Of a stretch of DNA of 38,646 nucleotides, positions 30,001-36,000 are shown one piece after another. Source of the DNA: a bacterium (GTDB taxonomy: Bacteria; Oederibacteriota; PGYV01; Palsa-1178); contig JBAXIL010000014.1 of assembly GCA_037138355.1 (NCBI GenBank), forward strand, positions 1-38,646, written 5' to 3'. The position numbers are program-made. Each line of letters starts with the position of its first letter. The stretch's first letter is position 1.

Positions 30001-33000
30001 AATAAAACAGAAAATTGCCAATAATGAAGATAATATATTCATTCTAAAAGCCATATCCCCAACAGGAACAAGCATAGATATTTTTCCAAGCACCATGTCA
30101 AGTGGATAACCAGGAGGATGTGGAATCCCTAAGGTATAAGCTGCAGCAACTATCTCTCCGCTATCTCCCATATATATTGTTGGAGGTGCAGTGTGTAGGT
30201 AAAATCCAAAAATGATTAATGACAAGAAAGCGAGTATATATTTCATTTGGCACCTATATCAATATTTTCTACCATTTCCCGCGCCGCTTTTAACGAAGTC
30301 TCTGTTACGGTTTCGCCACTCAATAACTTTGCTATTTCCTGAATTTTGCTACTATCATCTAATTTAATAATTAATGTTTCTGTTTTATTATCCTTAACAT
30401 GTTTTTCTACACTGTAATGCGTATCTGAATACGCCGCAATCTGTGGAAGATGAGTAATGCAAAGCAGCTGTTTTTTAAATGATATTTCTTTTAATTTTTT
30501 TCCTACAACTCCTGCAATTTTACCAGAAATACCAGTATCTATCTCGTCAAAAACCATTACAGGCACTCTATCAACCGCAGACAAAATATTTTTAATCGAA
30601 AGCATTATTCTCGAAATTTCTCCACCAGACGCCACCTTAACCAACGGCTTTAAATCTTCACCAGGATTTAGCGATATCATGAACTCCACAGTATTAATAC
30701 CTATACCAGTTACTTTATAATTTTTATTTTTGATTGTTACAAAAAAGTCATCAGGATTATCAGACACGCTATCTTTTACTTCTACTAAAAATCTCCCCTT
30801 CACTATACCAAGATCTTTCAATTCAGACTCGATTTTATGTCCCAAATCAATCGACTTCTTATGCCTTGCCTCAGATAAAATCTCACATTTCTCTGCAAGT
30901 ATAGTCATTAGTTTAGCTTTTTCTTTTTCCTTTTCTGCAATTATTACACTATTTAATTCAATATTATTTCTGTCTTTTTTCAGTTCCTCTTGATATTCCT
31001 TAAGTTGTAGAATACTTATTTTCCTATACTTTTTCATTAAGGACTCTATGAGTGTTATTCTCGCTTCAGTTTTTGCAAGCTTATCCTTATCAAACTCAAC
31101 TTTTTCTCTATAAGTCACAAAAAATTCTTTAATTTCTTCAAGTTTTATAACAGCCTCTTTTGAAAGCGCCAAATATTCCTCTACGCCTTTCTTGTCAATC
31201 TTCGCAATCTCTTCAATATCTTCATTTGATTTATATACTAAATCTATAGCTCCATCGCCTTCTTCGTCTAAAGATGATGGAGAAAGGTTCATAATAATAT
31301 TATTGACAGCTTCTTTCATAGCCTCTGTATTTATCATAATATCCCTATCTCTGTTTAGCTCTTCCAGTTCTGAATCTCCTGTAAGCTCCGCCTGCTCTAA
31401 TTCATTTAGTCTGTAAATCGTCATTTCTAATCGTTCTTGTTTTTCACTTTCTAATATTTTTAATTTTTTAATTTCAAGACAAGCACTATTAAATGAATTA
31501 TAAGCAGACAATACCTGAGACTTAACTACACTACTACCAGAATAATCATCAAGTAAATCCATATGTATTTCATTTTTTAACAGAGATTGGTGTTCGTGCT
31601 GTCCGTGTATGTCTATCAGAAGCTTCCCAATTTTTTCAAGAAAAACAAGTGAAGCATTTGAATTATTTATATGAATTTTTCCTTTAGAGGTGCGACTTAT
31701 TTCTCTTCTTATTACAAGTCCATCTTTAACTTGCTCCACACCTGCTTCTGCAAGCTGTTCGTTTATCAGCTTTATCAGTAGAGGATTATCTTTAAAATCA
31801 AAAACAGCTTCAACAACCGCCTTATCTTCACCTGTTCTAATATTTTCCAGATAGCCGCGCTCACCTATAGCAGTATTTATGGCACCTATTATTATTGATT
31901 TTCCTGCCCCGGTTTCGCCTGTAAGTATATTAAGACCTTTTGTAAAGTCAATTTCTATATCCCTAAGTAAAGCATAATTTTGAATTTTCAATGTTGAAAG
32001 CATTTCTTACACTCCCTATTACTTATTTAGTCCCATAATATCAATTATGGCTTTTTCTATTCCTTTTTCATTCAGACCACAATCATTTAATAATTGTTGC
32101 ATGGTCCCATGCTCAACAAACTTATCTGGTATGCCAAGTATTTTAACTTTTGGACTAACTATGTCTGACTTTAGCACCAGACGAGCCACACTCATACCAA
32201 AGCCACCCTCTATAGCGCCTTCTTCTATTGTTATCAAATGCTTTGTTTTCTTGACCGAGGCAAGTATTGTAGCTTTATCAATTGGTTTTGCAAACCTTGC
32301 GTCAATGACTTCAATCTTAATACGATTAGTCTTTTCAACTTTTTGTGCAGCATTTAATGCCGCATTTAGTGAAGGACCTAAACAAACAATCGTCAAATCA
32401 TTTCCTTTTTTTACTATTTTTGCATGACCTATTTTAACTGGTATTTTTAAAGAGATGCCTATGGATTTAGAAACTTTTCCTCTTGGAAATCTTATTGATA
32501 CAGGTCCGTCTTTATACAAAGCTGCCGCTAATAACATTCTCTCAAGTTCTATATCGCTCGATGGAGCCATAACTACCATGCCTGGTATCATTTTCATGAA
32601 AACAATATCAAATACTCCATGATGGGTTGGACCATCTTCACCAACTAAACCAGCCCGATCTAAAGCAAAAATTACTGGAAGTTTTTGCAAAGCCACATCA
32701 TGTATAATCTGATCTATAGCGCGTTGCATAAAAGTGGAATAAATAGCAACAACAGGTTTGAAGCCAGCCATAGCAAGACCAGCAGCAAATGTAACTGCAT
32801 GCTCTTCAGCAATTCCAACATCAAAAAATCTATCAGGAAATAATTCTCTAAACTTTGAAAGATTTGTACCTTCTATCATTGCTGCCACTATTGCCACGAT
32901 TTTTTTATTTTTTTTAGCAATACTTATTAACTGTTCGGAAAAAACAGAAGAATATGGAAGCGCTCCATCAGACTTCGCTGGTTCACCTGTAAGCTTATTA

Positions 33001-36000
33001 AATTTCCCTATTCCATGAAAAAGCGTTGGATTTTTTTCAGCAGGCTCAAATCCTTTTCCTTTTTTTGTAATAATATGAACTAATTTAGGACCTTTAATCT
33101 CCTGTAATTTTGTAAATGTTTCAACGAGCATTTTTATATTATGTCCACCTGATATCGGTCCAAAATACCTAAAGCCAAGCTCCTCAAACAAAACTCCAGG
33201 AGAAAGAATACCTTTTATGCCCTCTTCAAAATGTTTCATTACACTTGTTACTGGGACAGAAAAACCTTTTGGCATTATATCTAAAAACGATTTTGCAGTA
33301 TCTCTCAACTTATTATATGTTTTACCAATTATTATACTGTTTAAATAATTTGAAAGAGCACCTACAGTTGGAGAAATTGACATTTCATTATCAATTACAA
33401 CTACAAGAATATCAGTTTTATCATGGCCTATGTGGTTTATTGCTTCCAAAGACAAACCATTTGCCAGAGAAGCATCACCCAATACAGCTATCACATTGTG
33501 TTTTTCTCCATTAATATCTCGCGCCTTAGCGAAACCCATAGCTGCAGAAATAGAAGTAGAGGTATGACCAGCACCAAAAAAATCATATTTACTCTCAGAT
33601 GGTTTTAGAAAACCCGAAACTCCTTTATACTGCCGAAGTGTTTTAAAAGAAGATTTTCTTCCTGTCAATATTTTATGAGCGTAAGCCTGATGACCCACAT
33701 CCCATATTACCTTGTCATGATCTATATCAAATACTTTATATAAAGCAATCGTAGTTTCGACAGCACCAAGTGACGAGGCTAAGTGACCACCTGTTTCAGA
33801 AACAACATCCACCATAAAACCCCGAATATCTGAAGCAAGTATCTCAAGCTCTTCAAAGTTTAGTTTTGTTAAATCCGCAGGTTTATCAACTTTATTTAAA
33901 ATTTTATAATCCATATTATCCGTTCTTTAAGTAAAAAAATATTGGAAACAAAAGCCCTATTAAAATTCCCGCAGCAGCTTCTATAGGGGTGTGCCCTAAA
34001 AGCTCTTTCATTCTTTTTTCAGCATGAAACTTATGGTGCCTTAATTCATCTACTATCATATTTAATAATTTGGCTTGCTTTCCAGCAGCTCTTCTCACTC
34101 CCAAAGCATCTGAAATAACCACAACACAATACAATAAAGCCACCATAAAAACTGGATCTGTAAAACCAACTGTTAAACCAACGCAAGTAGTCAAAGCTGT
34201 CACTGAAGCAGTATGTGATGACGGCATACCGCCAGTTCCTACCAATAACCTAAAATCTAACTTATGATGCAATACAAGATTGATTATGAGTTTTAATGCC
34301 TGGGCAAAAAACCAAGCAGCAAAAGTCACATAAAATATCTTTGTAGTAACTATTGAAGTAAGAATTTTTCCAGCCTCAGCTATGGAATTTAACATTGAGC
34401 CTCCTTGTAACTACCTTATTTTATTAGTAATTTCTCTTAGTAAAGAATTTAGCAAGTTCCTTTAAATCATTTGTATCACCGTCTATTTTACCTAAAATAC
34501 CACACGCTTCAAGCACTAATTTGTCCGCTTTTATCATTGCTGCGTTAAGACCAAACACAGAAGGATATGTTGCTTTATTTACCTTTTCATCTTTCCTTAA
34601 TTTCTTTCCCATTTTCTTTTCATTTCCTGTTACATCCAGTATGTCATCAACTATTTGAAAAGCAAGACCAGTTTTTTCTCCAAAGGTTCTCAATAGTGCG
34701 AGCTTATGTTTATTTGCATTTGATAGAATTCCGCCCATAACAACGGAAGCTCTAATCAAAGCACCTGTCTTACATTTGTGTAAGTAAGCTAATTGTTGAG
34801 CATTTATTTTTTTTCCTTCACTTGTAATATCTAAAACCTGTCCGCCTATCATACCTCTCATACCAGCCCCATCCGCCAATTCAAGTGTTGCTTTAATAAT
34901 ATTTTCGGACTTAATCTTTTTATTTTTTGAACACATCATAAGACATTCAAAAGCACTTGTTAAAAGAGCGTCTCCAGCAAGAATAGCTATTGCCTCACCA
35001 AATTTTTTATGTAATGTAGGTTTTCCTCGCCTAAAATCATCATTGTCCATAGCAGGTAAATCATCATGAATTAATGAATAAGTGTGTATCATTTCCATAG
35101 CACATGCCGCAGGCATTACATCAAGATAAGAAAAGCCACAAGCTTTAGCAGCAAGCAAAGTCATTATAGGTCTTAATCTTTTTCCACCCGCAAAAAGGCT
35201 ATACTTGACCGCCTTGTATATGACTGGTGGGTATTCTTTTTTTGCACTAATATATTTGTTAAGATTTCGTTCCACCAGCAATGCTAATTTTTTTAATTTA
35301 TCATTCATAATTTCACCTTTTATTTAGAAAAGTCCGCCATCTACATCTTTTGGCTGTTTTTTTACCGGCTTAATTTTAACATGTTCTTCAGAAGTTGAAA
35401 CTTCATCAAGCTCTTCAGCAGTATAACCGTCTGCTGTTCTTTTTTTTAGTACTTCAATCTTCAATTTTTTTTCTTTTAGTATCTCTCTACATTTTTCTAT
35501 GAGCTTCATGCCCTTCTCATAATATTCAATATTTGTGTCCAGGTCCGCCTCACCTGATTCCAGTTTGTCAACAGTCTCTTCAAGTTCGTTAAGATAAGCT
35601 TCAAAACCTTTGTCTTTTTTCATAAATCCTCCTGTTAAAATTCTTTTATACTATTTAGACAAAAAACTTTCATTTATTATTCTCAAAATTATTCAACTAT
35701 ATTTTTTTAGTAATATCTGCTTCCAAGCTACCTTTATACAATTTTATCTTTACCGATTTGCCAGCGGTAGCAGAATCTTTTATTATACTTCCGTTTGCTG
35801 AATCATATACTACCGAATAACCTTTTTTTAATATGTTTAAAGGATTCATTATCTTCAGCCTATCATTAATGATTTTAAGGTTGTCAGAACTTTCAGTAAT
35901 TTTTTCATCTAATAATTTTCCAATGCTTACGCTAAGTTCGTCTATTCGTTGGACATGATCATTAAATATATTGAAAGGTATTTTAAATGCATATCTTCCC

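Follow-up and report, generated by a model that had tools for sequence, protein, structure and literature searches.

In the excerpts of two reviews on which we draw, NAD kinase (NADK) is described as the sole source of NADP and as essential where tested, Chlamydia being named as an exception (PMC4518329, PMC9208755). A NADK homologue is missing from Chlamydia trachomatis and from swine mycoplasmas, which nonetheless encode NADP-using enzymes; according to excerpts of the respective reports, they are host-dependent and possess a reduced NAD metabolism (PMC9208755, PMC4518329, PMC8553519, PMC4866288). A non-homologous NAD kinase, NADKc, is described for plants, with a P-loop and a zeta-toxin-like domain, and, as far as the excerpt goes, an unrelated fold can thus also phosphorylate NAD to NADP (10.1101/521658). 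A literature search covering few subscription papers returned neither a NADK-less free-living bacterium nor a bacterial substitute for NADK. Canonical nadK genes (NadK/PpnK, PF01513 + PF20143) occur in loci of the order dxs-tlyA-nadK-recN, and the locus described here has the same operon frame, minus nadK.

In the present study a metagenome bin of a Goldbacteria-type order (GCA_037138355.1, here G000; 94% complete, 91 contigs, 1.66 Mb) was analyzed, and 24 genomes of the order and a phylum set of 99 genomes, all of them metagenome bins, were used for comparison; f11 to f23 are labels for other families of the phylum. The window, i.e. the whole stretch of DNA analyzed (38,646 nucleotides), displays the following features around the junction of interest:

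30243..32003, minus strand: recN, 586 aa (Pfam PF02463), orthologue in 30/30 genomes, flanking the slot downstream
32004..32018, minus strand: spacer of 15 nt with a Shine-Dalgarno-like GGGAG run, the slot that holds nadK in f12/f13 relatives
32019..33914, minus strand: dxs, 1-deoxy-D-xylulose-5-phosphate synthase, 631 aa (Pfam PF13292/PF02779/PF02780), flanking the empty nadK slot upstream
33916..34395, minus strand: DUF212 divergent-PAP2 protein (PF02681)
34424..36896, minus strand: xseA-xseB-ispA, head of the conserved string xseAB-ispA-DUF212-dxs-[tlyA]-[nadK]-recN

As had been stated in a preliminary description, dxs abuts recN, and no nadK remnant was found in the 15-nt gap of G000. Both genes are adjacent in 11/12 further genomes of the order, f16/f17 show the arrangement dxs-tlyA-recN, and no replacement gene was found in the slot in loci of the order or of f16/f17. 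That relatives carry nadK between dxs and recN was borne out by 8/8 f12/f13 loci, all in the order dxs-nadK-recN. A RecN scan of metagenome contigs led to one locus. The comparison shows that nadK was lost cleanly from an ancestral dxs-(tlyA)-nadK-recN string in the ancestor of the order, and separately in f16/f17.

Searches for the gene elsewhere in G000 gave no match to PF20143 and nothing over the cut-off of PF01513, for which the two weak matches were PFK-like open reading frames. A broad NADK profile built from 20 sequences (A1), run unfiltered on all six frames, revealed no NADK either (best E 0.33), in line with the empty scan reported earlier for a custom model, and each GGDG-like motif sits in an open reading frame recognizable as another protein. 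It is distinctly unlikely that a NadK-fold enzyme is present which has diverged too far for such profiles. PF20143 alone does under-call, as it matched 0/2 f20 genomes and left 13/31 f22 genomes looking negative, Pfam also missed a protein in genome G096, and genomes other than G000 were searched with a loose first look; A1, however, recovers divergent NADK in 2/2 f20 and 30/31 f22 genomes, catches the G096 protein and picks up even YegS/DAGK and PFK, and in G000 both the unfiltered scan and the ancestral slot were empty.

Under A1, no NADK-type gene was found in 22/24 genomes of the order, and none in f11, f15, f16 and f17 (21 genomes), which brings the genomes without NADK to 43/99 in the phylum set; the weak A1 matches examined in these four families and in G093 are accounted for by YegS/DAGK. 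The lineage-wide absence is thereby supported and extends beyond the order, and the distribution suggests two to four separate losses in the phylum. The notion that the whole order lacks nadK holds for 22/24 genomes only (23/24 if a block in G095 is a mis-join), since G096 carries an NADK-like gene that had been missed. The only PF20143 match in the order (1/24) lies in G095, in a block of about 20.5 kb with 68-73% GC at a contig end, which carries its own ispA-dxs-tlyA-nadK, whereas the rest of the contig past the boundary bin has 39-54% GC; the dxs-recN of G095 itself lies outside the block and is intact, and the match was rightly called foreign to its genome. The G096 gene (L102:1135-2070) adjoins an SPFH gene, and its product, not detected by Pfam, matches A1 with E 1.6e-16 and aligns in hhalign with 98.8% over 233 columns, GQDG replacing GGDG. 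The Atlas clusters closest to it comprise unnamed 'sugar kinases' as well as NADK, and the likeness of this SPFH-linked GQDG family to NADK is a profile match. With its presence in 1/24 genomes only, it was ruled out as the substitute of the order.

Given that all genomes are metagenome bins, G000 being 94% complete with 91 contigs, nadK might have been relocated or be missing from assemblies or bins. Such an artefact is highly improbable, however, with 22 order and 21 other genomes negative, several of them 99-100% complete (the rating of G077, G080, G088, G089, G091, G019, G032 and G033) and in 7-20 contigs, and with the control genes Dxr, RecN and NadD recovered in 30/30 genomes, which indicates a high recall. 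The loss of NAD kinase in the order is real.

Enzymes of NADP type are nevertheless encoded, three of their genes within the window:

4686..6026, minus strand: gdhA, glutamate dehydrogenase, NADP-specific family (NF006929, 773 bits vs a cut-off of 536)
7110..8543, minus strand: nfnB, NADH-dependent ferredoxin:NADP oxidoreductase, large subunit (YRR...PAR motif; closest structures in the PDB: 4ylf/4yry and 5jca)
8530..9390, minus strand: nfnA, small subunit (NF004862 above cut-off)

Cofactor use was deduced from sequence motifs throughout; the loops of ProC and ArgC were taken from G000 alone, that of Gnd from G000 and G095. The basic motifs noted before in TrxB, Asd, ArgC, Gnd and NfnB of G000 were confirmed. 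Its Icd scores above the TIGR00183 cut-off and displays Lys344/Tyr345, as expected of a putative NADP-dependent type I isocitrate dehydrogenase. Lys/Tyr at E. coli positions 344/345 is a landmark of NADP use and Asp/Ile one of NAD use in excerpts of two studies (PMC5397045, PMC3590139), and Lys/Tyr was found in 13/13 order, 5/5 f16/f17 and 2/2 f11 genomes, never Asp/Ile. NfnB is present in 22/24 genomes of the order, with the YRR...PAR motif in 20/20 order loci examined and an adjoining nfnA in 19/20; G000 itself, with adjacent nfnA and nfnB that match solved NfnAB and with the YRR motif in NfnB, is predicted to possess the complex. Zwf occurs in G000 and in 3/5 NADK-less genomes tested, while G032 is without Zwf and without GdhA of the G000 type. 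The residues concerned in FolD, TrxB and NfnB, as well as Y391/R395 of Icd, are here presumed to bind the 2'-phosphate. All 12 pre-chosen 2'-phosphate positions (Icd, FolD, TrxB, NfnB), which are not independent of one another, are invariant in the order, as compared to 26-49% of columns overall, and no systematic loss of 2'-phosphate-binding residues tracking NADK loss was found. It was shown that the order keeps, with 2'-phosphate motifs, the predicted NADP-reducing enzymes Icd, Zwf, Gnd, FolD and NfnAB and the predicted NADPH-using enzymes TrxB, GdhA, Asd and ArgC.

Acidic loops of the NAD type, as reported earlier for FabG, ProC, GpsA and IlvC of G000, were confirmed by motif reading and are displayed by Dxr and Hom as well. 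The N-I-D loop of AroE was found in 13/13 genomes of the order and in 63/64 closest database homologues (loops checked by eye), and AroE is acidic in 5/5 NADK-less f16/f17 genomes; a single-protein AroE scan of genome contigs gave no match. As a marker of NADK the AroE loop is of use inside the phylum, in 2/4 NADK-less lineages, but was rejected as a general one, because outside the phylum 4/5 genomes with acidic AroE have NADK. IlvC, FabG, GpsA and Hom were rejected since they are acidic in NADK-bearing relatives too: IlvC in 4/4 NADK-bearing f12-f14 genomes, the other three in NADK-bearing G012. The IlvC loop is moreover Arg-type in 5/13 order genomes, and the reservation that the IlvC and FabG fingerprints do not track NADK loss was justified. 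The acidic site of Dxr is variable, being basic in f11 and most f16/f17 and acidic in NADK-bearing f20. Acidic loops therefore fail as evidence of NADP loss.

This bears on the proposal that the cells either have an unknown route to NADP or live largely without it. In a metabolism free of NADP, free-living cells would build everything on NADH and ferredoxin, the remaining NADP-type enzymes including NfnAB would use NAD or serve otherwise, and the basic motifs would be either relics or retained for adenine stacking. Stacking against adenine is a second role of the arginines that contact the 2'-phosphate, and it could preserve them even in the absence of NADP. Neither NADK nor a substitute was found, acidic loops are present in AroE, FabG, GpsA, ProC and Hom and, within G000, also in IlvC and Dxr, the N-I-D loop prevails among AroE homologues, and AroE went acidic in two NADK-less lineages, all in favour of such a metabolism. 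We nevertheless regard it as rather unlikely, because Icd has kept Lys/Tyr, because NfnAB, widespread as it is in the order, would lack a driving force if there were no separate pool of NADP (the reaction as given in an excerpt of PMC4518329), and because the acidic loops are common to NADK-bearing relatives. Of the two parts of the proposal, the route to NADP fits the data and life without NADP is disfavoured by the invariant residues of Icd, FolD, TrxB and NfnB.

NADP could also be taken up from other cells or lysed biomass via a transporter that has escaped recognition, as is assumed for Chlamydia. The published NADK-less cases that were found are host-dependent according to excerpts (PMC4518329, PMC9208755, PMC4866288), and the genome of G000 is small. 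Import is very unlikely all the same: relatives have 2-3.5 Mb, Goldbacteria are anaerobic cellulose degraders according to an excerpt (PMC7031533), and NAD synthesis appears complete in G000, with NadA, NadX, NadC, NadD and NadE assigned by visual inspection of sequence motifs. The TLC/NTT carrier (PF03219) had no match in this 94% complete genome, in a search whose control matched 1/14, none over cut-off. Unlike Chlamydia and the mycoplasmas, the order appears to be free-living and to make NAD de novo, and it keeps NfnAB.

That no substitute enzyme had been identified still holds after a search candidate by candidate. A role of the DUF212 protein beside dxs as the substitute phosphotransferase is not supported, as the gene is not anti-correlated with NADK (23/24 order, 1/5 f11, 0/1 f15 and most NADK-bearing f18-f23 genomes). 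A PAP2 gene follows nadD in 10/12 order loci, but its product begins with what resembles a signal peptide, and the gene does not adjoin nadD in f11, f15, f16 or f17. YegS/DAGK is absent from G000. No zeta-type kinase of the kind seen in plant NADKc was found in G000, where two matches over cut-off were SRP/FtsY-type GTPases and the others known P-loop proteins. Among the 317 gene pairs that G000 shares with the f17 genome G032, no new kinase family was found; this comparison covered 1.2 Mb (about 37%) of the 3.2 Mb of G032, the soluble proteins being inspected visually and 16 searched against Pfam. In G000 the NADK/DAGK/PFK superfamily was found to be represented by PfkA (G000:C11:22395-23372) and PPi-PFK (C22:22481-24148) alone, and if one candidate is to be named for NAD phosphorylation, this pair would be it, albeit as a long shot.

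Since NADP-type enzymes were retained despite the loss of nadK, the cells presumably still hold an NADP(H) pool, and this pool is probably made by an enzyme so far unrecognised. NAD would be made de novo and then 2'-phosphorylated in the cytoplasm by an enzyme outside the NadK family, most likely a kinase with another annotation, for which this would be a secondary activity. Given the repeated loss of nadK within a single phylum, such a back-up probably existed before the gene was lost. The resulting pool may be small and recycled by NfnAB, and several high-flux reductases, by using NADH already, would lower the demand for NADP.

NADK was lost here in apparently free-living, anaerobic, uncultured lineages, whereas the published cases that we found depend on a host. 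Apparently free-living lineages without NADK that yet bear NADP-specific enzymes represent a hole in core metabolism, for which the NADK-bearing sister families offer a comparison set. If a second bacterial route to NADP exists, it would be relevant to Chlamydia and the mycoplasmas, to antibiotics aimed at NADK and to the engineering of cofactors; the alternative would be cells able to do without NADP.

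The source genome (G000, a bin of 1.66 Mb, 35% GC and 94% completeness) was compared within a sample of 99 genomes of its phylum, 24 of which belong to its own order (families f1-f10; f11-f23 are other families of the phylum). Its nearest relatives by dxs bear the titles Ca. Goldbacteria or candidate division FCPU426, and Goldbacteria are described in passages of PMC7031533 as anaerobic cellulose degraders. Two pairs of its short contigs (C59/C60 and C76/C77) have near-identical gene sets, which suggests strain variants in the bin. In the window, its contig C14, the string xseA-xseB-ispA-DUF212-dxs-recN ends with:

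33914-32019, minus strand: dxs
32003-30243, minus strand: recN, last gene of the string

The spacer between both genes measures 15 nt, including GGGAG, and is thus too short for a remnant of the NAD kinase (NADK) gene nadK. Of 12 further genomes of the order, 11 have dxs and recN matches that end 8-236 nt apart; in the remaining one, G077, dxs is located away from recN. The arrangement dxs-nadK-recN was found in all eight loci of f12/f13, and in f14 dxs is followed by nadK with other genes intervening before recN. In f16/f17 dxs lies 0.8-0.9 kb from recN in four of five loci, and since a TlyA-type methyltransferase gene fills this interval (two scanned), the nadK slot is vacant there as well.

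No Pfam model for NADK matched the source genome. PF20143, cited in the preliminary description, indeed matches only one of 24 order genomes, but it under-calls divergent NADKs and scores those of f21-f23 weakly; for this reason a profile (A1) was made from 20 canonical and divergent NADKs of the phylum. Carriers of the divergent type in f20-f23 (loci L020-L032, L113), weak or missed with PF20143, can be miscalled as lacking NADK. A1 recovers NADK in 2/2 genomes of f20 and 30/31 of f22, and its sensitivity extends to YegS/DAGK and PFK proteins; unfiltered and in all six frames of the source genome, its best E-value was only 0.33. The claim that NADK is missing here and dxs abuts recN was therefore borne out, and a NadK diverged beyond detection appears rather improbable.

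Across the order A1 found two NADK-type genes (in G095 and G096) and one DAGK (G093). The G095 gene sits in a block of about 20.5 kb with 68-73% GC at a contig end (L101/L441, G095:C3:1-20500), the remainder of that contig having 39-54%. The block carries the core genes ispA, dxs, tlyA, nadK and ilvD, with 38-50% identity to counterparts in the source genome where these match, and G095 retains its own intact dxs-recN apart from it; a mis-join or chimeric join is most likely. In G096 (C54, L102:109-2070) an SPFH/band-7 gene precedes a gene with GQDG replacing GGDG, whose product matches no Pfam or NCBIfam model, has unnamed 'sugar kinase' clusters as Atlas neighbours and is, by profile resemblance, a putative NADK-like protein. 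In f11 (5 genomes), f15 (1), f16 (4) and f17 (11) A1 gave only weak matches, 14 in total, and all eight fetched were YegS/DAGK-like. Three genomes of NADK-bearing families (G007, G010, G057; 85-93% complete) gave no full match either, about as many as gaps in assembly would be expected to cause. As the control proteins Dxr, RecN and NadD were recovered in 30/30 genomes tested, 43 of the 99 genomes are without NADK, as entire families, and an artefact is very improbable. The absence formerly assigned to the whole order is hence real and wider, although the gene of G096 had been overlooked.

In a tree of Dxr and RecN from 31 genomes (FastTree, midpoint root) the sister group of the order consists of f15 and the NADK-bearing f12-f14, and f16/f17 group with the NADK-bearing f18/f19 at weak support (0.61), beside f11. 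This placement implies three or four losses of NADK, or two or three without the single, 90%-complete f15 genome.

Cofactor motifs were read by general rules, those for AroE and Icd 344/345 being taken from the papers cited below. Acidic residues occur in the loops of AroE, FabG, ProC, GpsA, IlvC, Hom and Dxr of the source genome, and the preliminary description read the first five of these as NAD(H)-type, which would amount to a cofactor switch. The AroE loop (matches in 27 of 30 genomes) is N-I-D in 13/13 order genomes, acidic in f16/f17 (5/5), and basic in f11/f15 (3/3) and NADK-bearing phylum genomes (7/7); in E. coli AroE, Arg at this position is reported as the NADPH determinant (passages of PMC7144000). 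This tracking stood within order and f16/f17 but not outside the phylum, where four of five genomes with acidic AroE loops possess a full NADK. Of 13 order genomes, eight have an acidic IlvC loop and five an Arg-type one; the loop is also acidic in all four genomes examined of NADK-bearing f12-f14; FabG, GpsA and Hom loops are acidic in NADK-bearing G012 (five genomes compared per enzyme). Most acidic loops thus go back further and are common to NADK-bearing anaerobic relatives, and the supposed switch is mostly unsupported. The Dxr loop, basic in many NADPH-using Dxr enzymes, does not track the loss; it reads ANEN in the source genome (L122, G000:C36:11054-12202) and is acidic in most order genomes, where Dxr could possibly use NADH.

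Icd of the source genome falls in the NADP family, and its best PDB matches come from B. subtilis and E. coli. Positions 344/345 are Lys/Tyr in order (13/13), f16/f17 (5/5) and f11 (2/2), as against Asp/Ile in NAD-type isocitrate dehydrogenases (according to parts of PMC5397045 and PMC3590139). FolD keeps GRS...HS in 13/13 order genomes; NADK-less genomes show this form and NADK-bearing f12-f14 (L251-L254) GHS...HIA, a contrast that on motif evidence would be the opposite of what NADP loss predicts. That TrxB, Gnd, Asd, ArgC and NfnAB keep NADP-type features was confirmed: TrxB retains HRR...R (12/12), NfnB, found in 22/24 order genomes, carries YRR...PAR in all 20 loci examined with nfnA adjoining in 19, and the loops of Gnd, Asd and ArgC in the source genome are basic; NADP-family GdhA, Zwf and HldD are also present. 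None of the 12 pre-chosen positions of Icd, FolD, TrxB and NfnB varies within the order, where 26-49% of all columns are invariant. As a sign of NADP use this is no more than indicative, because these positions depend on one another and arginines can stack on adenine as well. NfnAB ties NADP reduction to NADH and ferredoxin (per sections of PMC4518329) and would be purposeless unless a separate NADP pool exists. Judged from sequence, this retention is a stronger signal than the acidic loops, so that life without NADP, with which those loops would agree, is unlikely. In the window, nfnAB is placed between GOGAT and GDH genes in a nitrogen/redox cluster (31-15427: glutamine synthetase fragment, amtB-glnK, gdhA, GAF-ANTAR, nfnAB, gltBD).

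NADP is probably made in these bacteria, of which we know no cultured member, by an unrecognised enzyme. Searches of the source genome for a zeta-type kinase, a DAGK and a TLC carrier gave nothing, the only NADK-superfamily proteins detected were two PFKs, and gene comparison with 37% of one f17 genome revealed no new kinase family; NADP uptake is quite improbable. DUF212 and a PAP2 gene downstream of nadD were rejected as substitutes by their distribution across genomes. The PAP2-family gene (L137:1462-2190; G000:C6:13912-14640) has a signal-peptide-like start and directly follows proA-nadD, as in 10 of 12 order loci. Elsewhere in the genome, a 593-aa ORF (C5:10886-12667) with a ribokinase-like start, about twice the usual length and adjoining a transketolase C-terminal-type gene, is possibly a fusion, named by eye, and one cluster (C2:26902-32615) apparently holds, also by eye, two RfaE-type kinase and two matching adenylyltransferase genes.

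According to portions of three reviews (PMC9208755, PMC4518329, PMC8553519) NADP arises de novo only through NADK, with Chlamydia as exception; a table in one review lists 96% of bacterial genera as having an annotated NADK, and misannotation is suspected there for the others. Swine mycoplasmas also lack a homologue (excerpts of PMC4866288), and plant NADKc performs the same reaction by a different fold (10.1101/521658; PMC12178909, both in part). Among main texts, with subscription papers mostly outside coverage, we found no published NADK loss in Goldbacteria or free-living bacteria. The absence of NADK is a real hole in the core metabolism of these bacteria.
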